This document shows, piece after piece, positions 1 through 29,072 of a DNA stretch of 64,000 nt (its first letter is position 1; every line of letters begins with the position of its first letter). The DNA comes from Bacillota bacterium. GTDB lineage: Bacteria; Bacillota; Clostridia; Peptostreptococcales; Anaerovoracaceae. The notes under the pieces are model-generated. The model was not told where the DNA came from. It was given only the letters and a program-made list of their open reading frames with translations, and ran no database searches. The position numbers were made by a program, and so were the translations under genes. Where the stretch lies: positions 33,425-97,424 of the forward strand of contig JAGAHX010000009.1 of NCBI GenBank assembly GCA_017626845.1, in the 5' to 3' direction.

Positions 1-167
1 CTGTGGACGAGACCAGCGAAGACAGCTTAAAGAGCAGGTATTTTGCTTCCAGGGAACAGGCCATCGCTTATCTGCAGACGGCGGATCACAGCGCCGTGCT
101 GCGGCAGACCACGTTGGAAGACGTGTTCGTCGAATGCGCCGGCCGCAAGCTGGAAGGCGGGAGGTAG
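1..167 (+). CDS. ABC transporter ATP-binding protein, C-terminal fragment (gene starts upstream of the window)
   Basis: The frame opening at nt 3 reads ...AVLRQTTLEDVFVECAGRKLEGGR and stops at TAG 165-167. An LEDVF tail is typical of DrrA/CcmA-type ABC ATPases. A permease gene starts 5 nt downstream. Confidence 0.6.
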   Translation, partial: VDETSEDSLKSRYFASREQAIAYLQTADHSAVLRQTTLEDVFVECAGRKLEGGR

Positions 168-171
168 CGGC

Positions 172-2791: not shown

Positions 2792-2801
2792 GAGGTCCTC
2801 T

Positions 2802-3452
2802 ATGGCATATTTTCCGATCCTGATCGATTGGGACGGTCTGCCTTGCCTGGTGGCGGGCGGAGGCCGTCTTGCGCTGCATAAAGCGGCGCTGTTAACGGAG
2901 CAGGGGGCGGTGGTGACCGTCGTGGCGCCGGAGATCTGCGAAGAGATCCTGGCTCTTCCTGTGACCCCGGTATTGCGGAGGGTCACAGGGGAAGACGCTG
3001 CCGGCAAAGCCCTGGTGATCGACGCCACGGGCGACAGCGAAGCGCAAAAGCTCTTATCGGACGCCTGCAGACGGCAGAACGTGCCCTTTAACAGCGCGTG
3101 CAAGGTCGACGACGGAACGGCGATCTTTCCGGCGGTCCACAGACAGGGACGAACGGTCGTCGCCGTATCCAGCCTGGGAGCCAGTCCCGCTGCCAGCGCA
3201 AAACTACGCGATAAACTGGCAAACGAGGTTCCTGCGGAGATGGATGCGATCCTGGACTGCATGGCAGACCTGCGGCCGCTGTCCCGGGAATGGTTCTCCG
3301 AACAGCCGGAGCGAAGAGAATTCCTGCACCGCTGCCTGGATGCCATGCTGGCTTCCGGCAGACCTTTAAACGAAGAAACGGTCCGGGAGATCCGGAATTC
3401 CATTCGATCAATGTGTATTCAGCGAGAAGAAAAGGAGAAAACACATGGGTAA
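2802..3452 (+). CDS. Precorrin-2 dehydrogenase / sirohydrochlorin ferrochelatase (SirC / CysG N-terminal-domain type)
   Basis: 216 aa. N-terminal Rossmann motif VAGGGRLALHKAALLTEQGAVVTVVAPE is typical of siroheme synthase N-domain proteins. Confidence 0.75.
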   Translation: MAYFPILIDWDGLPCLVAGGGRLALHKAALLTEQGAVVTVVAPEICEEILALPVTPVLRRVTGEDAAGKALVIDATGDSEAQKLLSDACRRQNVPFNSACKVDDGTAIFPAVHRQGRTVVAVSSLGASPAASAKLRDKLANEVPAEMDAILDCMADLRPLSREWFSEQPERREFLHRCLDAMLASGRPLNEETVREIRNSIRSMCIQREEKEKTHG

Positions 3453-4404
3453 ACGATCCAAATTACTGATCTTACTGCTCTGCCTGTCCCTTCTGGCAGG
3501 CTGTGCAAAAACGGCGGAGCCGGAAGTAGAGGTGCAGCCGGCAGAATGGACTGCTGTAACCGTTACGGACGATCTGGGCAGGGAAGTGACCCTGGAGAAC
3601 GAGCCGCAGCGCGTTGCCTACCTCATCGGCAGCTTTGCGGAGACCTGGCAGCTGGCCGGCGGTGAAATGGCTGCTGCTGTCCGGGATGCCTGGGATGATT
3701 TCGATCTCGGCCTCGGCGAAGACGTCATCAATCTCGGCAAATATCAGGACGTCAACATGGAGATCCTGTTCGCAGCGGAGCCCGATCTTGTGATCGCCAG
3801 CGCCAATACGAAAGGGCAGGTCGAACTGAAGGAAACGCTGGAGAGCGCCGGCATCCCCGTGCTCTATTTCAGCGTATACGGCTTCGAAGATTATCTGCGG
3901 ATGCTGGACGTCTGCACCCAGATCACGGGCCGTCCGGACCTGTATGAAGAGAACGGCCTCAAGATCCAGCAGAACATCGAAACCGTAAAGCAGGCGGCTC
4001 AGGCCGCCGCAGCGGAACAGGGCGCTCCCAGAGTTCTATTCATCCGCGCCGCCGCATCTTTCGTCAGAGCGAAGGGCAGCGACGATACGGTCCTCGGCCT
4101 GATGCTGAAGGATCTGGGTTGCATCAATATTGCGGACGGCAGCGACCTTCTGGACGATCTTTCCATGGAAAAGATCATCGAAGAGGATCCGGACATGATC
4201 TTCATCGTGCAGCAAGGGAACGACACCGAAGGCACCCAGCAGGCACTGCAGGATGCGCTTACCGGCAACCCTGCATGGGCCGGACTGACTGCCGTGAAGG
4301 AAGACCGGGTCTACCACATGGATCGAAAACTATTCCACTTTAAGCCCAATAACCGTTGGGACCAGTCCTATGAGCAGCTCGAACAGATCCTCTACGGAGA
4401 ATAA
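3445..4404 (+). CDS. ABC importer substrate-binding lipoprotein (BtuF/FhuD-type, cluster A)
   Basis: Lipobox LLAGC at the N-terminus. Sits next to a FecCD permease and ATPase. DLVIAS and FIVQ motifs fit periplasmic-binding-protein type 2. Confidence 0.8.
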   Translation: MGKRSKLLILLLCLSLLAGCAKTAEPEVEVQPAEWTAVTVTDDLGREVTLENEPQRVAYLIGSFAETWQLAGGEMAAAVRDAWDDFDLGLGEDVINLGKYQDVNMEILFAAEPDLVIASANTKGQVELKETLESAGIPVLYFSVYGFEDYLRMLDVCTQITGRPDLYEENGLKIQQNIETVKQAAQAAAAEQGAPRVLFIRAAASFVRAKGSDDTVLGLMLKDLGCINIADGSDLLDDLSMEKIIEEDPDMIFIVQQGNDTEGTQQALQDALTGNPAWAGLTAVKEDRVYHMDRKLFHFKPNNRWDQSYEQLEQILYGE

Positions 4405-5383
4405 GACGATAACATTGATCGCAGCGGCTGCGACCTTCATGGCCGCTGCCGCCTTGCTGAATATCTGCCTGGGCGCCTCCCGCATCTCGCTTCCTCAGCT
4501 CTGGGAGGCGCTGCTCAGCGGGCCTGGTACGTCTGCCGCGTCCCGCATTCTCTGGTATGTCCGGCTGCCCCGCACTGCCGCCTGCCTGCTGGCGGGGGCA
4601 GGGCTTGCGGTGTCCGGCACCGTGATCCAGAAGGTGCTGGCCAATAATCTGGCATCGCCCGGGATCATCGGCGTCAATGCCGGTGCAGGTCTTGCGGTTG
4701 CCATCTGCAGCGGCTTCGGCATGTACTCCGCCTGGGTCATCGCGGGTTCCGCCTTCCTGGGCGCCATGATCGCCACCTTCGTCGTGGTCATCGTCGCCAG
4801 AAAGAGCAGCGCGTCCCGGACGACGGTCGTGTTGGGCGGCGTGGCCGTTACGGCCTGCCTGAACGCGGTGACCGAGACCATCATCGTCCTCATCCCGGAT
4901 GCGGCGCTTGCCAACGTGGATTTCCGGGTGGGTGGCTTTTCTGCGGTCAACCACGCGAGACTGGTGCCCGCCGCAGTGCTCATTCTGGCGGGGATCGTTC
5001 TGGTATGCACGCTGACGAACGAACTGGACGTACTGTCTCTTGGAGACGACACTGCCCATTCCCTGGGTCTTCGGGTCAACCGCATGCGCAACGGTTTTCT
5101 GACCCTGGCAGCGCTTCTGGCCGGAGCTACCGTAAGCTTTGCCGGCATCCTGGGATTTGTCGGGCTCATCGTGCCCCATATCGCCCGGCGCTTTATCGGA
5201 AACGAAAGCGGAAGGCTGCTGCCGTTCTGCGCGCTGATGGGGGCGGGATTTGTAACCATATGCGATCTGGCAGCACGCCTGATCTTTGCGCCTTACGAAG
5301 TATCCACGGGCATCCTGCTGAATTTCCTGGGCGGACCGTTCTTCGTCTGGCTGCTGCTGAAAAGAAAGGATAAGCACAAATGA
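4370..5383 (+). CDS. FecCD/BtuC-family ABC importer permease
   Basis: 337 aa and highly hydrophobic. LPRTAACLLAGAGLAVSGTVIQ and GILGFVGLIVPHIARR are hallmark FecCD motifs. Confidence 0.9.
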   Translation: MSSSNRSSTENKTITLIAAAATFMAAAALLNICLGASRISLPQLWEALLSGPGTSAASRILWYVRLPRTAACLLAGAGLAVSGTVIQKVLANNLASPGIIGVNAGAGLAVAICSGFGMYSAWVIAGSAFLGAMIATFVVVIVARKSSASRTTVVLGGVAVTACLNAVTETIIVLIPDAALANVDFRVGGFSAVNHARLVPAAVLILAGIVLVCTLTNELDVLSLGDDTAHSLGLRVNRMRNGFLTLAALLAGATVSFAGILGFVGLIVPHIARRFIGNESGRLLPFCALMGAGFVTICDLAARLIFAPYEVSTGILLNFLGGPFFVWLLLKRKDKHK

Positions 5384-6138
5384 TTTCCATACACGATCTG
5401 CATGCTTCCTATGAGGGAGACGAGATCCTGCACGGGATCGATGCTGCCTTTCCGGAAGGAAAGATCTCGGTGCTGATGGGTCCCAATGGCTGCGGGAAGA
5501 GCACCACGCTGCGCTCCCTCGTGCGCTTGGTTCCGCAGCGCAGCGGCCGGATCGAGATCGACGGACAGTCCGCGGATACCTATACGCCGCGGGATCTGGC
5601 CCGGAAGATCGCGTATCTGCCCCAGAGCAGAAACGTACCGGACATCGCGGTGCGTTCCCTGGTGATGCACGGCAGGTTTCCTTATCTGAGTTATCCGCGG
5701 CGCTATCGCCCGGAAGACCACCGGAAAGTACAAGAGGCGCTGGAATGGGTCGGTCTTTCGGATCTGGCGGACCGGAAGATGGAAAACCTCTCCGGGGGTC
5801 AACGGCAGAAGGCGTATCTGGCCATGGCGCTGGCGCAGGATACGGACGTCATCCTGATGGACGAACCGACGACGTTCCTGGACATCCGCAACCAATTCGA
5901 TCTTCTGGACCGGGCGAAGCAGCTGGCCCGGCAGGGAAAGACCGTCATCATGATCCTGCACGATTTTGAGGCCATCCTGCGCTACGCAGACCACGTCATC
6001 CTTCTGCACGACGGAAGCGTCCTGCAGGAGGGCAGGGCGGAAGATGTTCTCCGCTCGACCTCCATTCCGGAAGCGTTCCGGGTGACTCCTGTGTTCTATC
6101 AGGGCGACGATGGGTTGCACTGCTACGTGCATAAATAG
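5380..6138 (+). CDS. ABC importer ATP-binding protein (FepC/BtuD-type)
   Basis: Walker A GPNGCGKST, signature LSGGQRQ, Walker B ILMDEPT. 252 aa. Confidence 0.9.
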   Translation: MISIHDLHASYEGDEILHGIDAAFPEGKISVLMGPNGCGKSTTLRSLVRLVPQRSGRIEIDGQSADTYTPRDLARKIAYLPQSRNVPDIAVRSLVMHGRFPYLSYPRRYRPEDHRKVQEALEWVGLSDLADRKMENLSGGQRQKAYLAMALAQDTDVILMDEPTTFLDIRNQFDLLDRAKQLARQGKTVIMILHDFEAILRYADHVILLHDGSVLQEGRAEDVLRSTSIPEAFRVTPVFYQGDDGLHCYVHK

Positions 6139-6146
6139 AAATAGGG

Positions 6147-6175
6147 TTGAATTTTTCTTCCTTCTATACTAAAAT
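6147..6175 (+). promoter_or_regulatory. Sigma-A-like promoter (TTGAAT-17 nt-TAAAAT) feeding the riboswitch leader
   Basis: Hexamers at 6147-6152 and 6170-6175 with a 17-nt spacer, in the only AT-rich gap of this region. Confidence 0.5.
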
Positions 6176-6229
6176 TATTTTGTTATGCCGTGGGCAATTC
6201 CGCCCAGGGTTTTGACGTGCACAACTGAA

Positions 6230-6428
6230 TAAGAGACCGGTGCTCCGGCGTACAGATCAGTATGTCGGGGATAATAGGGAAACGGGTGAGAATCCCGTAC
6301 GATCTCGTCACTGTCATAGGCGAGTATGCGGCAACGCGAAATAAGCAGTCACTGATTCTCCATTGGGAAGACTGCCGCATATGAGGACCCTTCAGTCAGG
6401 AAACCTGCCGGTCATGGTACAGGAGCGT
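6230..6428 (+). ncRNA. Cobalamin (AdoCbl) riboswitch
   Basis: Core motifs read directly: AATAGGGAAACGGGTGAGAATCCCGT, TCGTCACTGT, CACTGATTCTCCATTGGGAAGAC and the B12 box CAGTCAGGAAACCTGCCGG. Lies about 80 nt upstream of the 6507 start, with a T-rich tract at 6466-6475. Confidence 0.85.
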
Positions 6429-6506
6429 TTGCTCTGCGCCACGAGTTATTGGTTGTACCGCCGCGTTTGTTTTTTCATGTGACGCGACAGAAACAAGGAG
6501 GAAAAC

Positions 6507-8303
6507 ATGAAACTCAAGAAAATTCTTGCGCTGCTGCTGGCGCTGGTCCTCATCATGGGATCGCTGGCAGCATGCACCAGCTCTCAGCAGCCTGCTGAGG
6601 AAGAGGATGAAGAAAACTACGAGACCGGCGACGCGTCTCTGGACGATCCTCTGAATCAGGACGGCATCGGCCCCACCGAGATCTTAGTCGTATCTTTCGG
6701 AACCAGCTTTAACGATTCCAGAAGACTCACCATCGGCGCCATCGAAAAGGACATCGCCGCTGCTTTCCCGCAGTTTGACGTCCGCAGAGGCTTCACCGCG
6801 CAGATCATCATCGATCATGTGCAGAACAGAGACGGCGAAGTCATCGATAACTTCGAACAGGCCATGGACCGCGCAGTTGCCAACGGCGTCAAGAACATCA
6901 TCATCCAGCCGACCCACCTGATGGCAGGTCTGGAATACAACGACATCGTCGCTTCCGCAGCCAACTATGCCGACGCCTTCAACAGCATCACGATCGGCAA
7001 GAACCTGCTGGATACCGACAGCGATTTCGTGACCGTTGCAAGCCTTCTCTATGAAGAGACCAAGTCCTACGACGACGGCGAGACCGCGATCGTTTTCATG
7101 GGTCACGGCACCGAAGCTGAATCCAACAGCGTCTACGCTTCCATGCAGGCTACCTTCGACCAGATGGGTCTGAAAAACTGCTATGTCGGCACCGTCGAAG
7201 CGACTCCGTCCCTGGACGACGTCGTAGCAGCAGCCAAGGAAGGCGGCTATAAGAGAGTCGTTCTCGAGCCCATGATGATCGTCTGCGGCGACCACGCCAA
7301 CAACGACATGGCCGGCGATGAAGAAGACTCCTGGAAGAGCACTTTCGAAGCGGAAGGCTTTGAAGTCGAATGTGTCATGAAGGGCCTGGGCGAGATCCAG
7401 GGCATCCGCGATCTCATCGTAGAGCACCTGACCGAGACCATCGAAAATGCAGACGAAGATCTGCTCACCGGCGATGCGTCCAAGGACGACCCCCTCAACG
7501 CTGACGAGATCGGCGAAAACGAACTGCTCGTCGTATCCTTCGGCACCAGCTTTAACGACTCCAGAGTTGCCACCATCGGCGGTATCGAAAAAGCTCTGGC
7601 CGCAGCATTCCCCGAATGGAGCGTCCGCAGAGGCTTTACCGCTCAGATCATCATCGACCACGTAGCGGACAGAGACGGCGAAGTCATCGACAACTTCGAA
7701 GAAGCCATGGATCGCGCTGTTGCCAACGGCGTCAAGAACATCGTTATTCAGCCGACCCATCTGATGGCAGGTCTGGAATATAACGACATCGTTGCTTCCG
7801 CAGCGAACTATGCAGACGCGTTCGAATCCATCACGATCGGCAAGAACCTGCTGGATTCCGATGCGGACTTCGAGCACGTTGCTCAGGTCGTCCACGAAGA
7901 GACCCAGCAGTACGACGACGGCGAGACCGCCATCATCTTCATGGGTCACGGCACCGAAGCCGAATCCAACGCAGTCTACGCCAAGATGCAGACCGTGTTC
8001 GACAAGCTCGGCTATGCCAACTACTACATCGGCACCGTCGAAGCTACCCCGTCTCTGGACGACGTCGTAGCAGCAGCAAAAGCCGGCGGTTATAAGAAGG
8101 TCGTTCTCGAGCCTCTGATGATCGTCTGCGGCGACCACGCCAACAACGACATGGCAGGCGATGAGGAAGACTCCTGGAAGAGCACCTTCGAAGCAGAAGG
8201 CTTCGAGGTCGAATGCAACATGGTCGGTCTCGGCCAGCTGCCCGCGATCCAGGAACTGATCGTTGACCACTGCAAGGCCACGATGACCGAAGCAGGTTTC
8301 TAA
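6507..8303 (+). CDS. Lipoprotein made of two tandem full-length CbiK-like chelatase modules
   Basis: Lipobox GSLAAC at residues 18-23, then an acidic linker. Two 281-aa units each carry VVSFGTSFNDSR, FMGHGTEAESN and IVCGDHANNDMAGDEEDSW. Confidence 0.85.
   Translation: MKLKKILALLLALVLIMGSLAACTSSQQPAEEEDEENYETGDASLDDPLNQDGIGPTEILVVSFGTSFNDSRRLTIGAIEKDIAAAFPQFDVRRGFTAQIIIDHVQNRDGEVIDNFEQAMDRAVANGVKNIIIQPTHLMAGLEYNDIVASAANYADAFNSITIGKNLLDTDSDFVTVASLLYEETKSYDDGETAIVFMGHGTEAESNSVYASMQATFDQMGLKNCYVGTVEATPSLDDVVAAAKEGGYKRVVLEPMMIVCGDHANNDMAGDEEDSWKSTFEAEGFEVECVMKGLGEIQGIRDLIVEHLTETIENADEDLLTGDASKDDPLNADEIGENELLVVSFGTSFNDSRVATIGGIEKALAAAFPEWSVRRGFTAQIIIDHVADRDGEVIDNFEEAMDRAVANGVKNIVIQPTHLMAGLEYNDIVASAANYADAFESITIGKNLLDSDADFEHVAQVVHEETQQYDDGETAIIFMGHGTEAESNAVYAKMQTVFDKLGYANYYIGTVEATPSLDDVVAAAKAGGYKKVVLEPLMIVCGDHANNDMAGDEEDSWKSTFEAEGFEVECNMVGLGQLPAIQELIVDHCKATMTEAGF
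6627..8300 (+). repeat. In-frame tandem duplication with an 843-nt period (unit 1 6627-7469, unit 2 7470-8300)
   Basis: GDAS(L/K)DDPLN restarts exactly 843 nt (281 codons) after its first occurrence. The units are colinear and roughly four-fifths identical at protein level by eye. Confidence 0.9.
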
Positions 8304-8336
8304 ACCCATTCAGAAAGGCAAACAACGAATCGAATA

Positions 8337-8366
8337 GCGGTCCGGAACATCTATTCCGGACCGCTT
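8337..8366 (+). terminator. Intercistronic hairpin (partial terminator, attenuator or mRNA-stabilising stem)
   Basis: Perfect 11-bp stem GCGGTCCGGAA / TTCCGGACCGC with a 6-nt loop. Only a weak T tract (TTCTT) follows. Confidence 0.5.
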
Positions 8367-8382
8367 CTTGAAGGAAGAGAAA

Positions 8383-9297
8383 ATGGACAGGAAGACCGTA
8401 AAATTATTGAGCCTTCTGCTCGCCGTGCTTTTAACGGCAGGAAGCTTCGCCGCCTGCACCCAGAGCAGTGAACCCGCAGAAGAACCCCAGACTGAAACGC
8501 AGGAAGAACCTTCGGAGACCAGCGATCAGATCGCATCGGAAGATGAAAAGATCGCCCGGGAAGACGTGGTGGAAGAGGGGATGATCCCCGTAGCCGCTGC
8601 GGACATCAAGGACGGCGTCTACGAAGTTCAGGTGGACAGCAGCTCCGGCATGTTCGTCGTAACGGGCTGCATCCTTACCGTGGAAAACGGCAGCATGACC
8701 GCCGACATCACCCTCAGCGGCGACGGATACCGCTATCTGTATCTGGGTACGCCGGAAGAGGCTGCATCCGCTCCCGAAAGCGATTATCTGATGCCGCAGA
8801 TCGACGAAAACGGCGTTCACCATTACACGTTTGCCGTGGATGCTCTGGACCAGGGCATCGACTGCGCCGCCTTCTCCGACAAGAAGGAAAAATGGTACGA
8901 CCGCATCCTCGTATTCCGCGCCTCTTCGCTTTCTCTCAGCGACTTCCGGGACGGTTTCATCAAGACGGCTTCCACGCTCGGTCTTGCGGACGGCGATTAC
9001 ACCTGTGAGGTAAGCCTGTCCGGCGGCAGCGGAAAGGCCAGCGTGGCTTCTCCCGCCAACCTGACGGTAAGAGGCGGCCGCGTGACCGCGGAGATCATCT
9101 GGAGCAGTGACAAGTACGACTATATGGTCGTCAACGGTGCGCATTATGATCCAATTTCCACCGAGAACGGCTCCACGTTCCTGATCCCTGTCGATGCCTT
9201 CGATTTCAGTCTGACGGTCATTGCCGACACCATCGCCATGAGCACGCCTCACGAGATCGAATACACGCTCAATTTCGATTCTTCCACGATCCAGTAA
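8383..9297 (+). CDS. Lipoprotein with two beta-rich repeat domains, family not recognised (paralog of 1691..2791)
   Basis: ATG 8383 is preceded by GGAAGAG. Signal and lipobox read LLAVLLTAGSFAAC. An acidic linker precedes two domains colinear with the 1691 protein. Confidence 0.75.
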   Translation: MDRKTVKLLSLLLAVLLTAGSFAACTQSSEPAEEPQTETQEEPSETSDQIASEDEKIAREDVVEEGMIPVAAADIKDGVYEVQVDSSSGMFVVTGCILTVENGSMTADITLSGDGYRYLYLGTPEEAASAPESDYLMPQIDENGVHHYTFAVDALDQGIDCAAFSDKKEKWYDRILVFRASSLSLSDFRDGFIKTASTLGLADGDYTCEVSLSGGSGKASVASPANLTVRGGRVTAEIIWSSDKYDYMVVNGAHYDPISTENGSTFLIPVDAFDFSLTVIADTIAMSTPHEIEYTLNFDSSTIQ

Positions 9298-10446
9298 ATG
9301 AAACACCTGAAACAAACAACGCTATGTCTTCTGCTGGCTGTCTGCCTTCTCATCCTGGCAGGCTGCGCGGCCGGCGGAGGATCTGCCGGGCAGCAGGACA
9401 CGCTGCCCGGTACGGACATTCCCAAGACGGATTCCATGGCTCTGGAATATGCGGATCAGTTTGCCGTCGATTATTACGAGGGCGGCTATAAGCTGCTCAC
9501 CGTAGTCCAGGGCGACCGGTACCTGCTGGTCCCGGAAGGGGCGGAGGTCCCTGCGGGACTGGACAGCAGCATCATCGTGCTGCAGGCGCCGGTGGAAAAA
9601 ATCTACATGGCCGCATCTTCCGTCATGTCCCTGTTCGACGCCATGGATGGACTGGACAGCATCCTGTTCTCCGCGACCCAGGCGAACGGTTGGTACGTAG
9701 AAAACGCGAAGAAGGCCATGGAAGAAGGGCGCATCTACTTTGCCGGCAAATACAGCGAACCGGATTACGAGGCGCTGCTGGAAGGGGAATGCGGACTTGC
9801 CATCGAGAATACGATGCTCCTCCACAGCCCGAAGGTGAAGGAGATGATCGAACAGCTGGGGATCCCCGTGCTTATCGAATACTCCAGCTACGAGAGCCAT
9901 CCGTTGGGGCGTACGGAATGGATCCGCTTCTTCGGCGCGCTGCTGGATAAGGAAGAGACCGCCAAGGCCTATTTCGACTCCCAGGTCGAGCGGGTAGCGG
10001 CGATCCAGTCCAACGAGAATACCGGCAAAAAACTGGGATTCTTCTACATCAGCCCCTCCGGCCGCGTGGTCGTCTACAGCGACAGCTGCTATGTCGCCAA
10101 GATGGTGGAGCTGGCCGGCGGCGAGTACCTGTTCCAAGGGGTCACCGACGAGGACAGCAGCCGCACCTCCGTCAACATCACCATGGAGGATTTCTACTCC
10201 TATGCGGTGGACGCCGACTATCTGATCTACAACGCCACCATCGACGATCCCGTCTATACGGTGGACCAGCTGCTGCAGAAGAGCGATCTTCTGGCGGAGC
10301 TGAAAGCGGTGCAGGACGGCCATGTCTGGTGCACGGGTAAATACATGTATCAGGCGTCGGACATCATCGGCGACCTTATCCTGGACATTCACCGGGTGCT
10401 TACGGATGACCCGGGCGAGATGTCCTTCATCTATCAGTTGCAGTAA
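9298..10446 (+). CDS. ABC importer substrate-binding lipoprotein (BtuF/FhuD-type)
   Basis: Lipobox LILAGC. 382 aa. Starts immediately after the upstream stop and is followed by a FecCD permease. Confidence 0.8.
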   Translation: MKHLKQTTLCLLLAVCLLILAGCAAGGGSAGQQDTLPGTDIPKTDSMALEYADQFAVDYYEGGYKLLTVVQGDRYLLVPEGAEVPAGLDSSIIVLQAPVEKIYMAASSVMSLFDAMDGLDSILFSATQANGWYVENAKKAMEEGRIYFAGKYSEPDYEALLEGECGLAIENTMLLHSPKVKEMIEQLGIPVLIEYSSYESHPLGRTEWIRFFGALLDKEETAKAYFDSQVERVAAIQSNENTGKKLGFFYISPSGRVVVYSDSCYVAKMVELAGGEYLFQGVTDEDSSRTSVNITMEDFYSYAVDADYLIYNATIDDPVYTVDQLLQKSDLLAELKAVQDGHVWCTGKYMYQASDIIGDLILDIHRVLTDDPGEMSFIYQLQ

Positions 10447-10456
10447 TGAGGATAGA

Positions 10457-11506
10457 ATGGGTAAAAGCAATCCGGAAAACGGTTACGATCTTTTAAAGCG
10501 CAGGCTTCGCTGCGAGACGGTTTTTGTGCTGCTCATCCTGGCATTCTGCGTCATTACCGTTCTGAATATCAACATCGGAAGCGTGCCGATCTCCGTAAAA
10601 GAGATCGCGCGCATTCTGTTTTTGCAGGAGGGTGACGCCACCCAGATGAACATCGTCTGGCGGATCCGTTTGCCCCGCATCATTACCGCTGCCGTGCTGG
10701 GCGGCGGTCTTTCTCTGTCCGGCTTCCTGCTGCAGACCTTCTTCAGCAATCCCATCGCCGGTCCTTTTGTGCTGGGCATCTCCTCCGGCGCAAAGTTGAC
10801 GGTCGCGCTCACCATGATCTATGCGCTGAGCTGGGCGGGTCATGTATCGTCCTTCCTGCTGGTGCTGGCGGCCTTCGTCGGCTCCATGCTCTCCACCGGA
10901 TTTATCCTGCTGGTATCTTCGAAACTGAAGAACATGTCGGCGCTGCTGGTGGCGGGCATCATGATCGGCTACATCTGCTCCGCCATTACGGATTTTGCCG
11001 TTACCTTTGCGGAAGAATCGGACATCATCAACCTGCGGAACTGGTCCCTGGGCAGCTTTTCCGGCATGAGCTGGGACAACGTAAAGATCGCCTGCATCAT
11101 CGTCGGCATTACCTCGGTCTGTGTGTTTTTCCTCTCGAAGCCCATCAACGCCTATCAGCTGGGGGAAAATTACGCCCGCAGCATGGGCGTCAACATCAAG
11201 ATGTTCCGCACGGCCCTCATCCTGCTCTCCAGCGTGCTGTCCGCCACGGTCACGGCTTTCGCGGGCCCCATCTCCTTCGTGGGCATCGCGGTGCCGCATC
11301 TCATCAAGCGCAGCCTGAACACGTCGAAGCCCATCGTCGTCATTCCGGCCTGCTTCCTGGGCGGTGCGGTGTTCTGCATGTTCTGCGACCTGGTGGCCCG
11401 GACGGCGTTTGCGCCTTCGGAACTCAACATTTCCACCGTAACGTCCATCTTCGGCGCGCCGGTCGTCATCGCCATGATGATCAAACGGCAGAAGGAGAAG
11501 CAGTAA
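10457..11506 (+). CDS. FecCD/BtuC-family ABC importer permease
   Basis: ATG 10457 (MGKSNPENG...) lies 10 nt after the upstream stop. FecCD motifs LPRIITAAVLGGGLSLSGFLLQ and ISFVGIAVPHLIKR are present. Confidence 0.9.
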   Translation: MGKSNPENGYDLLKRRLRCETVFVLLILAFCVITVLNINIGSVPISVKEIARILFLQEGDATQMNIVWRIRLPRIITAAVLGGGLSLSGFLLQTFFSNPIAGPFVLGISSGAKLTVALTMIYALSWAGHVSSFLLVLAAFVGSMLSTGFILLVSSKLKNMSALLVAGIMIGYICSAITDFAVTFAEESDIINLRNWSLGSFSGMSWDNVKIACIIVGITSVCVFFLSKPINAYQLGENYARSMGVNIKMFRTALILLSSVLSATVTAFAGPISFVGIAVPHLIKRSLNTSKPIVVIPACFLGGAVFCMFCDLVARTAFAPSELNISTVTSIFGAPVVIAMMIKRQKEKQ

Positions 11507-12631
11507 ATGGGTGAGCTGTATTTCAAGACAAAAGGCCTGACGGTCGGTTATAACGGAAAGCCGCTCATCCGGGACATCGAGTTCGGCGTGGAAAGAGGGG
11601 AGATCCTCACCCTCATCGGCCCCAACGGTTCCGGCAAATCCACGATCCTCAAATCCATCACGAAGCAGCTGAAGATCCTGGCGGGCACGGTCTATATCGC
11701 AGAGGACGATCTGAAGACCGTAAGCGCAAAGGAACTGGCGAAGAAGATGTCCGTCGTCCTGACGGAACGCATGAAACCGGAACTGATGAGCTGCCGGGAC
11801 ATCGTTGCAACGGGACGCTATCCCTATACGGGCAATCTGGGACTTCTGTCCGAAGAGGACGAAGCCATCGTGCAGCAGTCCATGGAGAGCGTCCACGTTC
11901 TGGACCTGCAGAACCGGGATTTCAACGCGATCTCCGACGGACAGCGGCAGCGCGTCCTGCTGGCCAGAGCGCTCTGCCAGCAGCCCGAGATCATTATTTT
12001 AGACGAACCCACGTCGTTCCTGGATATCCGCCACAAGCTGGAGTTGCTCTCCCTGCTGCGCAAACTTACGAAGGAGCGGGACATCGCCGTCATCATGTCC
12101 CTTCACGAGATCGATCTGGCCCAGAAGGTCTCTGATAAGGTGATCTGCGTGAAAGGTGAGATCATCGCGCGGTACGGCACACCTGCGGAAGTCTTTCAGG
12201 AAGAGACGATCCGGGAACTCTACGGCATCGAAAACGGCACTTACGATCCGCTCTTCGGCAGCATCGAGCTGGGCAGGCCCCAGGGCACGCCGGAGATCCT
12301 CGTACTGTCCAACGGCGGAAGCGGCATTCCGGTCTACCGGGATCTGCAGAAACAGGGAACGCCTTTTGCGGCAGCCATCCTGAGCACCAACGACATGGAC
12401 TACGCCGTCGCGCGGCACATGGCGACGGAGATCGTGACGGCAGCCCCGTTCCAGCCCATAACGGAAGAGGCGCTGGACCGCACCATGGCGCTGGTGAGAT
12501 CCTGCAAAGAAGTGATCGATGCGGGGGTCACCATCGGGCAGACCAATCAGGCCATGGAAGAGATCCTGGCGGAGGCGGAACGCCTCGGCAAACGGAAGAA
12601 GGTGAAACAGCATGACGTTCTTCCGGTATAA
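11507..12631 (+). CDS. ABC importer ATP-binding protein with an extra C-terminal domain of about 115 aa
   Basis: Walker A GPNGSGKST, signature ISDGQRQ, Walker B IILDEPT. 374 aa, against 252 aa for the paralog at 5380. Confidence 0.85.
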   Translation: MGELYFKTKGLTVGYNGKPLIRDIEFGVERGEILTLIGPNGSGKSTILKSITKQLKILAGTVYIAEDDLKTVSAKELAKKMSVVLTERMKPELMSCRDIVATGRYPYTGNLGLLSEEDEAIVQQSMESVHVLDLQNRDFNAISDGQRQRVLLARALCQQPEIIILDEPTSFLDIRHKLELLSLLRKLTKERDIAVIMSLHEIDLAQKVSDKVICVKGEIIARYGTPAEVFQEETIRELYGIENGTYDPLFGSIELGRPQGTPEILVLSNGGSGIPVYRDLQKQGTPFAAAILSTNDMDYAVARHMATEIVTAAPFQPITEEALDRTMALVRSCKEVIDAGVTIGQTNQAMEEILAEAERLGKRKKVKQHDVLPV

Positions 12632-13574
12632 TGCGATCGCCATGGCGGCGGGGCTCCTGCTGGACCTTCTGATCGGAGATCCGGAAAACTGGCCCCATCC
12701 CGTCATCTGGATCGGAAAATGGATCTCTTTCTGCGACCGCAAGATCCGGGCCAAGGCGGCAGGGGATAAGACGAAGCTGCGCCGGGGATCCGTCTGGATG
12801 ACCGCAAGCACCGTCCTTTTCTCCATGACTGTAACGGCAGCCGTGCTGCGGGTCGCCGCATTCGGAGGGACCTACGTGCTGCTTGGGCTCATGTCCATAA
12901 TTTCCTGGACTTGCCTCGCCTCCAAAAGCCTCGCAAAGGAAGCCCGCGGCGTGCAGAAGGCGCTGGAGCAGAGCCTGGAAAAGGGCAGAAAACAGGTGGG
13001 ACGCATCGTGGGAAGAGATACGGCGTCGCTTTCCGCGGAGGAGATCGTGGCGGCTACGGTGGAGACCGTGGCGGAGAACACGACCGACGGCATCATTTCA
13101 CCCCTGATCTATCTGTTTTTAGGCGGACCTGTGCTGGCCATGGGCTTTAAAGCCGCCAGCACCTTGGATTCCATGGAAGGCTATCTGGATGAAAAGTACC
13201 GGGACATCGGCTGGTCCGGAGCAAAACTGGACGACGTTCTGAACTATGTGCCGGCCCGCATCAGCGGTCATCTGATGTGCCTGGCGGCATTTCTGACCGG
13301 CACAGACGGCAGAAATGCTTATAAGATCCTAAAGCGGGACCACGCCAATCACCTGAGTCCCAACTGCGCCTGGACGGAGAGCGCAGCGGCAGGCGCCCTG
13401 CACGTGCAGCTGGGCGGCAGCCACGAATACTTCGGCAAGGTGATCGAAAAACCGACGATCGGAGATGCGGACCGTCCCATTCAGGCGGACGACATTCAAA
13501 AGACGAACCGGCTGATGTACGGCACCACGTTCCTGGCGGCAGGAGCGCTGACCGTCCTCGGCCTGATGTTATAA
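12612..13574 (+). CDS. cbiB: Adenosylcobinamide-phosphate synthase CbiB
   Basis: N-terminal LLLDLLIGDPENWPHPV is the CobD/CbiB family signature. Membrane protein of 320 aa. Confidence 0.85.
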   Translation: MTFFRYNAIAMAAGLLLDLLIGDPENWPHPVIWIGKWISFCDRKIRAKAAGDKTKLRRGSVWMTASTVLFSMTVTAAVLRVAAFGGTYVLLGLMSIISWTCLASKSLAKEARGVQKALEQSLEKGRKQVGRIVGRDTASLSAEEIVAATVETVAENTTDGIISPLIYLFLGGPVLAMGFKAASTLDSMEGYLDEKYRDIGWSGAKLDDVLNYVPARISGHLMCLAAFLTGTDGRNAYKILKRDHANHLSPNCAWTESAAAGALHVQLGGSHEYFGKVIEKPTIGDADRPIQADDIQKTNRLMYGTTFLAAGALTVLGLML

Positions 13575-13581
13575 ACTGCGT

Positions 13582-14646
13582 ATGGAAAAATTGAGAGAAG
13601 GGTTTACGACCGGAAGCTGCGCGGCGGCAGCAGCCCTGGCCTGCTGTCTGTGGCAGCGGGACGGAGCCTGTCCCGAGGCGGTGGAACTGGAAGTGCCCGG
13701 CGGAAAAGTATATAGACCGGAGATCCTGCCCCACGGGGACGGAAGCTGCGGCATCATCAAGGACAGCGGCGACGATCCGGACATTACGAACGGCATGGAG
13801 GTCATCGCAAAGGTGGAACTGTTCCCGGAGGATGGACCCATCTCGTTCTGTGCGGGAGAAGGCATCGGCATCATCACCCAGCCGGGACTGAAGATCCCGG
13901 TGGGAGAGCCTGCCATCAATCCGGTACCGCGTCAGATGATCGAAGGCGCGGTGCGCAGCGTGTTCGGGTCAAAAGGAGCCGTCGTGACCATCTCCATCCC
14001 CGGCGGCGCCGACATCGCAAAGAAGACCTTCAATCCCAGACTCGGCATCGAAGGCGGCCTGTCCGTGCTGGGGACCACCGGCATCCTCCGTCCTATGAGT
14101 CTGGAAGCCCTGCGGGATTCCCTGTACGTGGAACTCAAGATGCGGGCGGAGCAGGGGCATAAGGCGCTGGCGTTCACCTTCGGCAACCAGGGAGAATCGG
14201 CGCTGCAGACCATAGGCTGCAGGCTGCCGGTCGTTCAGGTAAGCAACGAGATCGGCTTTATGCTGGATTCCGCCAAGGAACTGGGGATCGAATATCTGCT
14301 GGTGAGCGGTCACCCGGGCAAGATGACGAAGATCGCGGCAGGCATTATGCAGACCCACAGCCATACGGCGGACGGCAGAAAAGAAGGGATCATTACGCAG
14401 CTGGCCCTGATGGGTGCACCGAAACAGCTTTGCGAGCAGGTGTACGGCTGCGTTACGACGGATTCCGCGGCGGAGTTCATCCACAAGGCCGGATACGACG
14501 GCGTGTGGGACCGCATCGCTGCGGCCGCGAAAGATTATATGACGTTCCGGGTTCGGGATGCGGTCCGGATCGAAGCGATGGTGACGGACTACGCCGGAAA
14601 CGTGATGGGAAAGTCCGCAGAGCATCCGGAAGGGTTGGAACTATGA
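13582..14646 (+). CDS. cbiD: Cobalt-precorrin-5B (C1)-methyltransferase CbiD
   Basis: N-terminal LREGFTTGSCAAAAA and GDDPDITNG motifs are typical of CbiD. 354 aa. Confidence 0.85.
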   Translation: MEKLREGFTTGSCAAAAALACCLWQRDGACPEAVELEVPGGKVYRPEILPHGDGSCGIIKDSGDDPDITNGMEVIAKVELFPEDGPISFCAGEGIGIITQPGLKIPVGEPAINPVPRQMIEGAVRSVFGSKGAVVTISIPGGADIAKKTFNPRLGIEGGLSVLGTTGILRPMSLEALRDSLYVELKMRAEQGHKALAFTFGNQGESALQTIGCRLPVVQVSNEIGFMLDSAKELGIEYLLVSGHPGKMTKIAAGIMQTHSHTADGRKEGIITQLALMGAPKQLCEQVYGCVTTDSAAEFIHKAGYDGVWDRIAAAAKDYMTFRVRDAVRIEAMVTDYAGNVMGKSAEHPEGLEL

Positions 14647-15701
14647 ATACCATAACACACGGAGGAAACGTCTGGCAGGGCAGCAGCCCCGGCGAATGGC
14701 TGGATTACTCCGCGAACATAAGACCGGACGGCGCGCCTGCATGGGTCAAAGAAGCCCTGCAGCAGGCGATGGACAATATCTCGTATTATCCGCCTGTGGA
14801 CATGCACCGGGCGAGAAAAGGCCTGGCGGAGTATCTGGAGCTTCCGGAGCAATTCGTGCAGCCGGCATCCGGCGGCGCCTCCGCCATCGAACTGGCCACC
14901 CGCTGCGGCATGAACCAGGTGCTGCTGTGTGCGCCCTGCTTCGGGGAATACAAAGGAGCGGCGCTCAAGGCGGGACTGCCGGTGGAGACCGTCGTCCTGC
15001 TCCGCAAAGACCGTAGCATCGCTTCCCCCGCGGAAGCCATCCGGGATACGCTGCAGGAACGGACCCTCATCTGGATCTGCAGTCCCATGAATCCCACGGG
15101 ACACACCTTCAGCAGGCAGGAGATCCTGGACCTGCTGGACCTGGCGAGGGAACACCGGAGCCGCGTCGCGCTGGATGAAGCCTTTATCGACTTCTGTCCC
15201 GGTGCCAGCAACCGCGATCTGATCAAGACCTGGCCGGAACTGATCGTGACCGGCTCCATGACGAAGATCCTCGGCATTCCCGGAGTCCGGCTCGGTTATC
15301 TGTGCAGCCAGGACGCTCTGCAGCTGGGCGGCAAATGCCTGCCCTGGGAGCTGAACTGCTTCGCGGAAGAAGTGGCGGCGCAGCTGCCGGCTCATAAGGA
15401 AGAGATGCTGGCGGATGCGGATGCCAGCCGTCTCCGCACTGAAAGCTTTACAAAGCAGCTGCAGGAACTGGGCCTTGCCGTTTATCCCTCGGCTTCCAAT
15501 TTCGTCCTGATCGACCTGGGCCGGGATGCAGAGCCCGTCATCGAAGCGCTCAAAGGAAAAAAGATCCTGGTGCGCCGCTGCATGGACTTTGCCGGGATCG
15601 ACGACGGACGCCATCTGCGGCTGGCCGTCAAAGACGAAGAATCGAATCAACTTTTTATCCATACACTGAAGGAGATCCTCACATGCGCGGAAAATCATTG
15701 A
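14643..15701 (+). CDS. cobD: L-threonine-O-3-phosphate decarboxylase (CobD-type class I/II aminotransferase fold)
   Basis: ATG 14643 overlaps the cbiD stop. HGGN near the N-terminus. The SMTKILGIPGVRLGY lysine motif, length and context fit CobD. Confidence 0.75.
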   Translation: MNTITHGGNVWQGSSPGEWLDYSANIRPDGAPAWVKEALQQAMDNISYYPPVDMHRARKGLAEYLELPEQFVQPASGGASAIELATRCGMNQVLLCAPCFGEYKGAALKAGLPVETVVLLRKDRSIASPAEAIRDTLQERTLIWICSPMNPTGHTFSRQEILDLLDLAREHRSRVALDEAFIDFCPGASNRDLIKTWPELIVTGSMTKILGIPGVRLGYLCSQDALQLGGKCLPWELNCFAEEVAAQLPAHKEEMLADADASRLRTESFTKQLQELGLAVYPSASNFVLIDLGRDAEPVIEALKGKKILVRRCMDFAGIDDGRHLRLAVKDEESNQLFIHTLKEILTCAENH

Positions 15702-17215
15702 TGTTTCAAGGAACCGGCTCCTCCGTGGGCAAATCCATGCTCTGCACGGCGGTGCTGCGCATCCTGCACCAGGACGGACTGAAGGTGGCGCCGTTCAAGG
15801 CCCAGAACATGGCCCTCAATTCCTTTGCCACCAGCGAAGGGCTGGAGATGGGCCGGGCTCAGGTGACCCAGGCAGAAGCGGCCTGCATCGAACCCTCCGT
15901 CAAGATGAACCCCATTCTGCTGAAGCCCACGTCGGACCGCAGGAGCCAGGTCGTGGTGGGCGGCAAGCCCATCGGCACGCTTACGGCCATGGAATACGAA
16001 GAATATAAGCCGCAGCTGCGCCAGTTCGTGAAAGACACTTACGATGAACTGGAGAGCAGCGTGGACGTGGTCGTCATCGAAGGGGCCGGGAGCCCTGCGG
16101 AGATCAACCTGCATGAAGGGGATCTCGTGAACATGGCCATGGCAAAAGCGGCCGATGCGCCGGTGCTGCTCATCGGCGACATCAATCCCGGCGGCGTTTT
16201 CGCATCCGTCTACGGCACCGTCAAACTGCTGCCCGAAGACGAGCAGAAGATGATCAAGGGCATCGTCATCAACAAGTTCCGCGGCGACGTCAAGATCCTG
16301 GAACCGGGTCTGGACATGCTGGAGGAACTGCTGGGGATCCCGGTTGTGGGGGTCATCCCCTATATGGACGTGGACATCGAAGACGAGGACTCCGTAACGG
16401 AGCGCTTCAACCGCCAGTACGGCGGGGAGGCGGTGCGCATCGCCGTGGTCCACATTCCGCACATCTCCAACTTTACGGACTTCAACATCCTGGAGAGCGA
16501 AGCGGACGTTTCCGTCAAATATGTAAAGAGCGCCTCCGAGATCAAGGACGCGGACATCGTCATCATCCCCGGAACGAAGAACACCATCGAAGACCTCAAC
16601 TGGATGAAGCAGCGCGGCATCGCCGACGAGATCGTGCGCTTCGCCCGCAAGGGCGGCATGGTCGTCGGCATCTGCGGCGGCTATCAGATGCTGGGCGAAC
16701 GGCTGTACGACCCGTACTATTCCGAATCCCGCATCCCCGAGATGGCGGGACTGGGCCTGCTGGACCTCACCTGCACCTTCGAAAACGAAAAGACCACGGT
16801 GCAGTCCCGGGGCGTCGTAAACAGCAAGGCCGGCTGGATGAGCGAGCTCAACGGCGTGCTGGTGGAAGGCTACGAGATCCACATGGGCGTCAACGATTAC
16901 GGTCCGGGCTGCGAACCCTTCCTGTTCCTCAACGGAAGAGAGCATCCCGACGGCGTATCCAATAAGGAAGGCAACGTGATGGGCACCTATCTGCACGGCC
17001 TGTTCGACACCGGCGCCTTCGGCAGAGCCCTCATCAACAAGGTGAAGAAGGATAAAGGCATCGCCGTATCTGACGAAGAGATCCTCACCATGGAGGAATT
17101 CCGCGAAAGAGAGCTCAACAAGGCGGCGGACATCGTCCGGGCCAACCTGGACATGGATGCGGTCTACGAGATCATCCGGGGCGGCGACGCTCCTTTAGGC
17201 AGGTGGAAGGAATGA
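15683..17215 (+). CDS. cbiP: Cobyric acid synthase CbiP/CobQ (alternative start at 15701)
   Basis: MFQGTGSSVGKS P-loop. The C-terminal glutamine amidotransferase domain has ICGGYQMLG and YLHGLF. Confidence 0.9.
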   Translation: MRGKSLMFQGTGSSVGKSMLCTAVLRILHQDGLKVAPFKAQNMALNSFATSEGLEMGRAQVTQAEAACIEPSVKMNPILLKPTSDRRSQVVVGGKPIGTLTAMEYEEYKPQLRQFVKDTYDELESSVDVVVIEGAGSPAEINLHEGDLVNMAMAKAADAPVLLIGDINPGGVFASVYGTVKLLPEDEQKMIKGIVINKFRGDVKILEPGLDMLEELLGIPVVGVIPYMDVDIEDEDSVTERFNRQYGGEAVRIAVVHIPHISNFTDFNILESEADVSVKYVKSASEIKDADIVIIPGTKNTIEDLNWMKQRGIADEIVRFARKGGMVVGICGGYQMLGERLYDPYYSESRIPEMAGLGLLDLTCTFENEKTTVQSRGVVNSKAGWMSELNGVLVEGYEIHMGVNDYGPGCEPFLFLNGREHPDGVSNKEGNVMGTYLHGLFDTGAFGRALINKVKKDKGIAVSDEEILTMEEFRERELNKAADIVRANLDMDAVYEIIRGGDAPLGRWKE

Positions 17216-19193: not shown

Positions 19194-19198
19194 ATACT

Positions 19199-23636: not shown

Positions 23637-23640
23637 TTTT

Positions 23641-24474: not shown

Positions 24475-24496
24475 AGAGGCGGAATTAGACAGATTT

Positions 24497-24520
24497 GAGG
24501 ACGGTAAGTCCTCTTTTTTT
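24497..24520 (+). terminator. Rho-independent terminator closing the long + strand operon
   Basis: GAGGAC-GGTAA-GTCCTC hairpin followed by T7. Confidence 0.75.
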
Positions 24521-28871: not shown

Positions 28872-29072
28872 GAATCAGATGTCCTGGGGTGTTCGTTAAG
28901 ACTCTTAATTCAACCTACAGTTTCACATTGGGATTCCGGATGTCGCGTCCGCGTGTATGTCAGGCCTCCGTTGCAGTGGAAGGCAGAAAACGGACCGCAG
29001 GAGACCCACCTATCTATCGATAGGGCGTGAATTAAAGTCTGACGGCACTCTGGGCTTCTTCGTTTTTACGGG

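Follow-up and report, generated by a model that had tools for sequence, protein, structure and literature searches.

A cobalamin riboswitch-controlled cassette of exported CbiK and NEAT-fold lipoproteins with a BtuCD-like importer in Clostridia, a candidate surface relay for a tetrapyrrole

Exported relatives of the chelatase CbiK, tandem NEAT domain surface proteins and riboswitch-controlled importers of the BtuFCD type have each been described in other bacteria, and a gene cassette at positions 6147-12631 (+ strand) of a 64-kb stretch of DNA from a Bacillota bacterium (contig JAGAHX010000009.1; the whole stretch is referred to as the window) brings the three together. The cassette encodes a lipoprotein with two CbiK (class II chelatase) modules, a lipoprotein with two NEAT-fold domains, a substrate-binding lipoprotein, a FecCD/BtuC-type permease and an ATP-binding cassette (ABC) ATPase (Table 1). 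We propose, with a probability of roughly three in four, that these proteins form a B12-regulated surface relay for a tetrapyrrole. How Gram-positive gut and rumen bacteria compete extracellularly for B12-family molecules is an acknowledged blank, and according to a 2026 review Gram-positive extracellular cobamide capture 'remains entirely uncharacterized'. A preliminary description of this DNA, made from the sequence alone, knew of no characterized equivalent in Firmicutes; in agreement with it, no description of a CbiK-NEAT-importer cassette was found in the literature on CbiK, NEAT, B12 riboswitches and corrinoids in Clostridia. The cassette appears to be a so far undescribed route by which Gram-positive bacteria take up molecules of the B12 type or precursors of these.

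The closest relative by descent, as judged from protein comparisons, is the Iht module of Porphyromonas gingivalis. The iht genes (L082:5615-11924) encode, in this order, the TonB-dependent receptor IhtA, the exported CbiK-fold lipoprotein FetB, a Peripla_BP_2 binding protein (IhtC), a FecCD permease and an ATPase. The window has the same layout, except that a NEAT-like gene is inserted between the CbiK and the binding-protein genes; the Gram-negative Iht system has the TonB-dependent receptor in place of the NEAT-like protein, and its CbiK protein consists of a single module without the N-terminal EENYxTGDAS...NQDxIG extension that is described below. FetB is 37-38% identical to each of the two CbiK modules of the window. 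The binding protein of the window aligns end to end with IhtC (24% identity over 364 amino acids, E 6e-18), and the unit of CbiK and importer therefore seems ancient and common to both phyla. A cobalamin riboswitch was detected upstream of the iht operon in two P. gingivalis contigs (L082:5178-5417 and L081) at about 75 bits (74.7). The papers on FetB and Iht that were consulted, in which the module is read as a heme/iron or Mn-porphyrin system, make no mention of this riboswitch. In a published BLAST search the best match to CbiK in P. gingivalis is the surface lipoprotein FetB.

The Isd systems of Staphylococcus aureus and Bacillus anthracis (IsdB/H, IsdA, IsdC and IsdX1/2, delivering to IsdE and IsdF) likewise combine tandem NEAT surface proteins with a class III binding protein and a FecCD permease, and multi-NEAT architectures occur in them as they do in the family of the window protein. 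In contrast to Isd, the surface proteins of the window are lipoproteins that are not sortase-anchored (there is no LPXTG), expression is under a riboswitch rather than Fur, the neighbours are cbi genes and not heme oxygenases, and a chelatase-fold protein heads the chain. The sequence similarity of the NEAT-like family to Pfam NEAT is at or below threshold, and no IsdG-like gene was present among the neighbours in the window. A further parallel is found in Bacteroides, where accessory lipoproteins on the cell surface, encoded in btu loci under riboswitch control, reportedly bind corrinoids; the BtuB-BtuG/BtuH/BtuJ and BtuFCD loci resemble the window in having accessory surface lipoproteins beside a core importer under riboswitch control. 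The window organism differs in being Gram-positive, with no outer membrane, and neither of the two window lipoproteins gave a DUF4465-type Pfam match, their folds being those of CbiK and NEAT.

CbiK(P) of Desulfovibrio vulgaris is an exported CbiK as well, but it is soluble in the periplasm, has only one module and is not accompanied by a NEAT-like protein; it reportedly keeps chelatase activity and binds a metallo-tetrapyrrole. Cytoplasmic CbiK, represented by the Salmonella enterica enzyme (1qgo) and by a second CbiK encoded in the window, shares its fold and its His/Glu/His residues with the exported proteins, which differ by their export, their often multiple modules and their extra N-terminal motif. 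BtuFCD of Escherichia coli and BtuCDF of Halobacterium are, like the transporter of the window, type II importers under a cobalamin riboswitch; the window transporter differs in scores that stay below the cut-offs, in a binding protein that is not BtuF-like in sequence and in the two extra surface proteins encoded upstream. The corrinoid-starvation operons of Dehalobacter were considered and set aside as a different system, which carries CobN-type chelatases.

The adenosylcobalamin (AdoCbl) riboswitch that the preliminary description had placed at 6230-6428 was recovered with Rfam. The RF00174 model is covered over positions 1-189 of 189 (E 1.2e-21), and the score of 92.4 bits exceeds the gathering score of 31.5. 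The genes that follow, for which the preliminary description gave 12631 as the end, are not a salvage operon standing on its own. Position 12631 is not the end of the operon: cbiB begins at 12612, and the genes run on without gaps through cbiB, cbiD, a gene for a cobD-type aminotransferase, cbiP/cobQ, cbiA, cbiC, cbiF, cbiG, cbiH, a cbiJ-cbiE-cbiT fusion and a patatin-like gene to a terminator. Because the genes run unbroken to this terminator, the riboswitch would control an operon of about 18 kb that opens with the surface and transport genes. By its gene content the host, an uncultured bacterium represented only by metagenome assemblies, encodes the whole anaerobic ring pathway, and the cassette heads the cbi operon of a predicted de novo producer.

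The first gene of the operon encodes a protein of 598 amino acids with the N-terminus MKLKKILALLLALVLIMGSLAAC, in which a basic n-region and a hydrophobic core are followed by a lipobox L-A-A-C with Cys23 (signal peptides and lipoboxes were called by rule), so that the lipoprotein signal noticed earlier on this product stands. PF06180 matches the protein in two full-length stretches (511 bits, profile positions 3-262 of 262). The motifs FMGHGTE, GTVEA and CGDHANNDMAGD are present in two copies each, which bears out the earlier statement that two complete modules keep both metal-binding His motifs. The predicted catalytic triads, His200/Glu231/His263 and His481/Glu512/His544, align with His145, Glu175 and His207 of S. 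enterica CbiK. At the protein level the modules are 76% identical to each other, and in the DNA the repeat has a period of 843 nt with 79-83% identity. Since the copies are only that similar in DNA, the tandem represents an old duplication, and an assembly artefact as its origin is ruled out. Sequence matches in the PDB were FetB (9b86, 8e-47), S. enterica CbiK (1qgo, 2e-45) and D. vulgaris CbiK(P) (2xvx, 1e-32). Family-specific changes were observed beside the active site (His204Ala and Thr265Asn), and the tetrapyrrole-contacting motifs of CbiK are also conserved in the exported family.

Each exported CbiK module of the Clostridial family is preceded by the motif EENYxTGDASxDxxxNQDxIGExELL, of which the window protein has copies at 6612-6680 and 7455-7520 (amino acids 36-58 and 317-338). 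In sequence comparisons this motif was found neither in cytoplasmic CbiK nor in FetB. It resembles a calcium-binding loop.

In public records the exported protein carries the name of a biosynthetic enzyme, because it passes the 400-bit cut-off of the NCBIfam equivalog NF047852 (sirohydrochlorin cobaltochelatase) with 436.8 bits; NCBI gives the name 'sirohydrochlorin cobaltochelatase' to members of its cluster. Taken literally, this would make the protein an ordinary cytoplasmic enzyme with unrelated neighbours, and its signal peptide an artefact of the chosen start codon, to which we attach next to no probability. The cut-off is passed only because the scores of the two modules add up, whereas the true cytoplasmic paralog, encoded separately at 915-1694, scores 221.5 bits. 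A strong ribosome-binding site lies 5' of the ATG of the signal peptide, signal peptides are conserved across the family, and family members are fused to exported NEAT-like and binding proteins. The cytoplasmic assignment was rejected on these grounds. The cassette CbiKs all have export signals: a lipobox was recognized in 62 or more of the 77, and signals of the signal-peptidase-I type are present in several of the others that were inspected.

The second lipoprotein had been left without a recognized family in the preliminary description. This was correct as far as family models go: neither Pfam nor NCBIfam gave a match, and PF05031 did not match even at E <= 10. PDB sequence searches, with the protein alone or with a 35-sequence profile, gave no match either, and the identity of the lipoprotein therefore came solely from fold comparison. 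An AlphaFold2 model with 35 homologs as input (mean predicted local distance difference test score, pLDDT, 87.3) contains two beta-sandwich domains, and the top 21 Foldseek matches in the PDB are all NEAT proteins, including IsdB (3e-7), IsdH N2N3 and IsdX1 (TM-score 0.70). Many homologs carry a precomputed Pfam NEAT match; the homolog P0066 reaches the gathering threshold of PF05031 (33.1 against 32.8 bits), while P0022 remains below it at 27.9 bits. The analogy with the Isd heme relay, drawn in the preliminary description for the proposed role, is now a literal homology of fold, given the tandem NEAT fold of the partner lipoprotein.

The lipobox Cys is invariant in this family. In 79 family members the invariant residues of the first domain (D1) are Ser87, Ser88, Met90, Phe91, Tyr116, Trp171, Tyr172 and Arg174, and those of the second (D2) are Gly214-Gly215-Ser216-Gly217, Tyr245, Asp246, Thr283, Met286, Pro289 and Tyr294. 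Position 290 is His in 67 and Tyr in 12 of the 79 sequences, all of which have Tyr294, giving a motif [H/Y]xxxY in the last strand of D2; its register relative to NEAT follows from Pfam profile coordinates and not from a structural alignment. We take this motif to be like the metal-ligating YxxxY of heme NEAT domains. D1 has Tyr172 without the second Tyr in these sequences, and its Met in the lip region is presumably as in IsdB-N2. This conservation makes Met/Tyr in D1 and Met/His-or-Tyr/Tyr in D2 candidate metal ligands. Multi-repeat proteins of the NEAT-like family form chains of up to 11 repeats, and such chains, together with one to three CbiK modules, are as expected for capture proteins.

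The genes for a binding lipoprotein, a FecCD permease and an ATPase that follow had been recognized before, and Pfam supports all three assignments (Peripla_BP_2, FecCD and ABC_tran), which together give the layout of BtuFCD under a B12 riboswitch. At the level of equivalogs, none of the three was assigned to BtuC, BtuD or BtuF, and in NCBIfam the binding protein had no BtuF equivalog match. Its best PDB sequence match is only E 0.009, and the other binding protein of the window matches it only locally over 43 amino acids. Sequence comparison places it together with IhtC in a divergent subfamily of binding proteins. Its AlphaFold2 model has a pLDDT of 90.8. The C-terminal extension of the ATPase, for which MJ0874 is listed as the precomputed Pfam family, aligns with that of the archaeal corrinoid ATPase model. 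In rumen Lachnospiraceae the cassettes have ATPases of 256 amino acids without this extension.

The type of importer bears on whether the surface proteins could capture Co2+ without any tetrapyrrole, the CbiK modules feeding a metal or metal-chelate importer. The metal-binding His/Glu/His residues are conserved, B12 riboswitches often control cobalt transporters, and no CbiM is encoded nearby, all as such a function would have it. FecCD and Peripla_BP_2 importers, however, carry chelates, heme or B12 and not free ions, and the permease scores 20 bits with the ABC-3 family against 259 bits with FecCD. With a NEAT fold, which is a tetrapyrrole binder, as the second component and with the tetrapyrrole-contacting motifs of CbiK retained, capture of the bare ion is highly improbable.

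The cassette is conserved as a unit. A scan with one genome per species gave at least 549 matches, and gene order was analyzed for the best 80 of these, with flanks of 10 kb, from which the absence of a gene from a whole genome cannot be concluded. Nearly all of the best 80 belong to the Clostridia (Lachnospiraceae, Oscillospiraceae, Ruminococcus, Roseburia, Blautia, Dorea and Marvinbryantia, and further Agathobaculum, Butyricicoccus, C. clostridioforme, Lacrimispora, Coprococcus and others). An exhaustive profile search returned 2474 clusters at 50% identity, 901 of them at E <= 1e-30. In 69 of 72 loci with sufficient upstream sequence, the gene directly 5' of the NEAT-like gene encodes an exported CbiK, and in 51 of 60 loci the genes for binding protein, permease and ATPase lie directly 3' of the NEAT-like gene. 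Rfam detected the cobalamin riboswitch in 7 of 7 related loci, and a covariance model built from these Clostridial aptamers places it immediately before the first gene, and on the strand of the genes, in 70 of the 72 informative loci, i.e., those with enough upstream DNA. The co-occurrence of exported CbiK genes and B12 riboswitches, which the preliminary description had proposed to survey, is thus the rule in these loci, and it comes with a conserved gene order. The covariance model, R1, missed the P. gingivalis riboswitch that Rfam scores at 75 bits; as R1 undercounts, its survey of the loci L081-L160 was left out of the statistics.

Exported CbiK homologs, earlier taken to be rare, are not so: all 8000 of 8000 scored candidates match the tandem CbiK protein at E <= 1e-10, and proteins with one, two and three modules occur. 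Nor is the tandem arrangement the norm. One CbiK module is usual, and two or three are common in Oscillospiraceae and in the clade of the window (L001, L002), so the tandem is a lineage variant and not a defining feature. Fusions were found between CbiK and NEAT-like proteins (L051, P0388, P0465 and P0204, the last having two CbiK modules ahead of a NEAT-like region) and between NEAT-like and binding proteins (P0365, P0366, P0371, P0374, P0413, P0435 and L045). The order of the domains in these fusions, CbiK, NEAT-like protein, binding protein, is that of the genes, and it is the order expected of a hand-over chain. The gene for P0204, which has two CbiK modules and two NEAT domains, has no adjoining transporter and yet is preceded by a cobalamin riboswitch. 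A permuted cassette is present at L083:4047-9923, where the riboswitch is followed by the binding protein, the permease, a short ATPase, a CbiK-NEAT lipoprotein and cbiD; this lipoprotein consists of two CbiK modules and a single NEAT-like domain.

A stem-loop with a perfect 12-bp stem separates the CbiK and NEAT-like genes of the window, and its folding energy was reached by 0 of 200 shuffled sequences. Of 75 loci, 37 have a hairpin with a folding energy of -22 kcal/mol or lower after the CbiK gene, and none of the 75 has one inside that gene; equally strong ones follow the NEAT-like gene in 28 of 78 loci, the binding-protein gene in 8 of 64 and the permease gene in 3 of 61. The stem-loop of the window is a possible partial terminator or mRNA stabilizer. 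Given their position after the CbiK and NEAT-like genes, such hairpins probably lead to graded expression in which the outer components are more abundant than the transporter.

The conserved riboswitch and gene neighbourhood also bear on a function in heme, porphyrin or iron acquisition of the Isd/Iht type, for which the riboswitch would be incidental. NEAT domains bind heme, and in fold the second lipoprotein is closest to IsdB, IsdH and IsdX1. FetB was deposited in the PDB as a 'heme-binding protein', the binding protein weakly resembles IsdE in NCBIfam comparison, and heme binders are among its structural neighbours. Nevertheless we consider such a function very unlikely, and the assignment to a heme/iron regulon was rejected. 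The riboswitch is found in 70 of 72 loci and also before a stand-alone fusion gene, the cassette is embedded in cbi operons, and no heme oxygenase or IsdG-type gene was seen in the operon. The iht operon, itself preceded by a cobalamin riboswitch, does not respond at the level of transcription to iron or heme starvation, according to a review, and in a 2026 study FetB neither inserted Fe nor removed iron from hemin. The preliminary description had further supposed that the known exported CbiKs are linked to heme rather than B12; this is contradicted by the iht riboswitch and by Desulfovibrio, where Rodionov (2004) described cbiK-cbiL-btuCDF under one B12 element, in which cbiK may or may not be the paralog CbiK(P).

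In the reading that we favour, the cassette is a B12-repressed surface relay for a cobalt tetrapyrrole, for which we infer a direction of transfer, a mode of metal ligation and a cargo as follows. In its working it would be like the staphylococcal Isd heme relay, though under a cobalamin riboswitch, and like the Btu surface relay of Bacteroides, with hand-over outside the cell when B12 is limiting. When AdoCbl is low, the riboswitch would permit transcription of the operon. Flexible acidic linkers would hold the three lipoproteins at the outer surface of the membrane, with the CbiK-fold modules, two in the window, as the outermost receptor. These modules would hand the ligand to the tandem NEAT-fold protein, where the conserved Met/Tyr of D1 and Met/His-or-Tyr/Tyr of D2 would ligate the metal, and the NEAT-like protein would pass it on to the substrate-binding lipoprotein, which would dock on the BtuCD-like type II importer. 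The stem-loops after the first two genes would raise the amount of the receptor proteins over that of the transporter. As the cargo we favour a scavenged corrinoid, either complete or, more attractively, incomplete and polycarboxylated, such as cobyrinic acid, cobyric acid or cobinamide. Such incomplete forms are close to what CbiK itself produces, and the axial positions of their cobalt are free.

That the cargo is a pre-formed corrinoid is a tentative assignment, held with somewhat less than even confidence. Three observations hint at it. The transporter proteins find their best NCBIfam models in the corrinoid family, the ATPase in the archaeal BtuD model ('corrinoid ABC transporter ATPase', PRK09536, residues 8-357, 224 bits) and the permease in BtuC (213 bits). 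In rumen Lachnospiraceae a full-length gene for cobyric acid synthase is the only one to follow the cassette. By analogy, the accessory btu lipoproteins of Bacteroides bind corrinoids. Several results weigh against a salvage function, and against a corrinoid as its object. The scores just given stay under the cut-offs of the models (537 bits for PRK09536 and 334 bits for BtuC), and the Foldseek comparison of the binding protein puts binders of siderophores, of heme and of B12 alike at about 1e-11 to 1e-12, so that it does not discriminate between ligand classes. Across 80 exported modules the catalytic His/Glu/His are at least 98% conserved, and the exported modules keep 58 of the 69 positions that are conserved in cytoplasmic CbiKs. 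As far as can be judged from these residues, a full chelatase active site would seem more than a mere binding protein needs. FetB, the closest characterized homolog, is according to the 2026 study a surface lipoprotein that inserts Co and Mn into porphyrin in vitro. In at least 16 of the 80 loci the cassette heads or adjoins cbi ring-synthesis operons, the genera that bear it are mostly predicted B12 producers (genus-level calls, Rodionov 2019), and the CbiM N-terminal motif MH[ILMV]x[DE]G was found in 0 of the 80 cassette loci (L001-L080) within the 10-kb flanks.

Much of this is accommodated if the exported CbiK is active as a cobaltochelatase outside the cell, inserting Co2+ into a metal-free tetrapyrrole of the sirohydrochlorin type. 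This substrate would be scavenged, or else come from the cell's own export. The NEAT-like protein would then ligate the cobalt of the product and the importer would bring it in at the step of CbiL, so that the cassette would be a cobalt- or precursor-supply arm of de novo synthesis and not a salvage system. The conservation of the active site with its surrounding motifs, the activity of FetB, the producer genera with the cbi embedding, and the absent CbiM suit extracellular chelation at least as well as scavenging. In vivo, deletion of fetB lowers surface Mn-porphyrin (2026 study). In several of the loci with adjoining cbi operons no second CbiK is in view, although cobA, sirC and cbiL are out of view there too. 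The CbiM motif adjoins cytoplasmic cbiK in 35 metagenome loci (L096-L159), and no CbiMNQO was found anywhere in the gene annotation of the window; the 35 loci come mostly from one lineage, however, and flanks of 10 kb leave the remainder of each genome out of view. Rodionov (2004) reported that delta-proteobacteria with cbiK-type synthesis lack any known cobalt transporter. P. gingivalis has a corrin pathway without precorrin-2 synthesis, a case cited by Shelton et al., who predicted 180 'tetrapyrrole precursor salvagers', mostly host-associated Firmicutes, and named no uptake route for them. The operon upstream of the cassette interleaves cobA, cbiL, an ABC-2 exporter, cbiK, a NEAT-like gene, sirC and importer genes, and the same exporter adjoins the cassette itself, if only in 4 of 80 loci.

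Against chelation outside the cell, the host has a cytoplasmic CbiK and SirC and therefore no need of a chelatase at the surface, and the Lachnospiraceae operons with cobQ only point to a later intermediate. We know of no report of free extracellular sirohydrochlorin. We consider extracellular cobalt insertion rather unlikely on the whole, and scavenging of a corrinoid is slightly favoured over insertion of cobalt into an early precursor. Were the exported CbiK indeed to work as a chelatase, this could explain the enigma of P. gingivalis, the route taken by the 180 precursor salvagers and the missing cobalt transporter of Desulfovibrio, and would amount to a 'cobaltophore-like' or precursor-salvage pathway.

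The surface relay has consequences beyond the window. As the cassette is widespread among dominant Clostridia of gut and rumen (at least 549 species-level matches and 2474 clusters) and tied to the riboswitch, it offers a concrete, testable candidate for extracellular competition for B12-type molecules, and also a candidate for how tetrapyrrole precursors are taken up. The relay would bring chelatases and NEAT domains, known from textbooks as heme shuttles, into the B12 regulon. Exported CbiKs, CbiK(P) among them, would gain a physiological context, and FetB/Iht of P. gingivalis is recast as a riboswitch-controlled system. Database annotation hides the family, whose members carry either the name of a cytoplasmic biosynthetic enzyme or no name.

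Table 1. Features of the cassette, of the operon that it heads and of the upstream module, in positions of the window.
Feature	Position	Strand	Basis and remarks
Cobalamin riboswitch aptamer	6221-6426	+	RF00174, 92.4 bits; homologous aptamers at the same site in 70/72 related loci
Ribosome-binding site AGGAGG	6497-6502	+	6 nt 5' of the ATG at 6507
Lipoprotein, two CbiK (class II chelatase) modules, signal peptide predicted	6507-8303	+	Pfam CbiK
CbiK module 1	~6612-7466	+	part of ORF (open reading frame) 6507-8303
CbiK module 2	~7467-8300	+	part of ORF 6507-8303
Stem-loop, 12-bp perfect, between CbiK and NEAT-like genes	8336-8365	+	-26.4 kcal/mol, z -7.3
Lipoprotein, two NEAT-fold domains	8383-9297	+	AlphaFold2 and Foldseek; 304 amino acids, lipobox F-A-A-C, Cys25
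NEAT-fold domain D1	~8560-8937	+	candidate axial ligands Met90/Tyr172
NEAT-fold domain D2	~8965-9294	+	candidate axial ligands Met286/His290/Tyr294
Class III substrate-binding lipoprotein	9298-10446	+	Peripla_BP_2, 106.7 bits; lipobox L-A-G-C, Cys23
FecCD/BtuC-type permease, type II ABC importer	10457-11506	+	Pfam FecCD, 259 bits
ABC ATPase, C-terminal extension of ~120 amino acids (~250-374)	11507-12631	+	Pfam ABC_tran
Rest of operon	12612-24513	+	Pfam and NCBIfam; genes abut or overlap
Terminator-like hairpin with T-run	24497-24513	+	end of cbi operon
Promoter-like site TTGAAT-17-TAAAAT	6147-6175	+	consensus scan, 9/12 positions agree
Candidate expression platform: hairpin GGUACA...UGUACC, then U-run UUUGUUUUUU	6416-6476	+	sequence and fold
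Paralogous module	915-6138	+	Pfam; second cobalamin riboswitch outside the window
Cytoplasmic CbiK	915-1694	+	Pfam
NEAT-like paralog, signal peptide and C-terminal membrane anchor predicted	1691-2791	+	no Pfam match
SirC-like protein	2802-3452	+	Pfam
Second binding protein	3445-4404	+	Pfam
Second FecCD permease	4370-5383	+	Pfam
Second ATPase	5380-6138	+	Pfam

The module directly upstream of the cassette is paralogous to it, so that the host has two riboswitch-controlled sets of a NEAT-like protein and a type II importer. Its NEAT-like protein is 38% identical to the NEAT-fold lipoprotein of the cassette over 286 amino acids (E 2e-61). With Phe at position 90 and Val at position 290, it may bind another ligand or bind in another way. 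On contig L162, from the same organism, RF00174 matches at L162:6655-6847 with 110.8 bits, about 3.3 kb before position 1 of the window, and this riboswitch is followed by cobA, cbiL and the DrrA-like ABC-2 exporter. The exporter, a DrrA/NodI-like ATPase and permease pair, lies inside this upstream cbi operon (window 43-903; L162:8408-9989), and the cassette loci with close orthologs next to them are L008, L021, L035 and L070.

Further features were observed around the cassette. The promoter-like site falls in the 83 nt that separate the upstream ATPase gene from the riboswitch; it is weak evidence for a promoter, because the count of such sites in the region is not above that in shuffled sequences. 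The candidate expression platform has a fold energy that is not better than that of shuffles (z -0.33). In the cbi part of the operon cbiJ, cbiE and cbiT are joined in a single ORF of 656 amino acids (21666-23636), and the last gene before the terminator encodes a patatin-like phospholipase (23641-24474). Further downstream, a 6S RNA (RF00013, 55.4 bits) is located at 28878-29060, between the genes for a YebC/TACO1-family protein and an ECF-type sigma factor.

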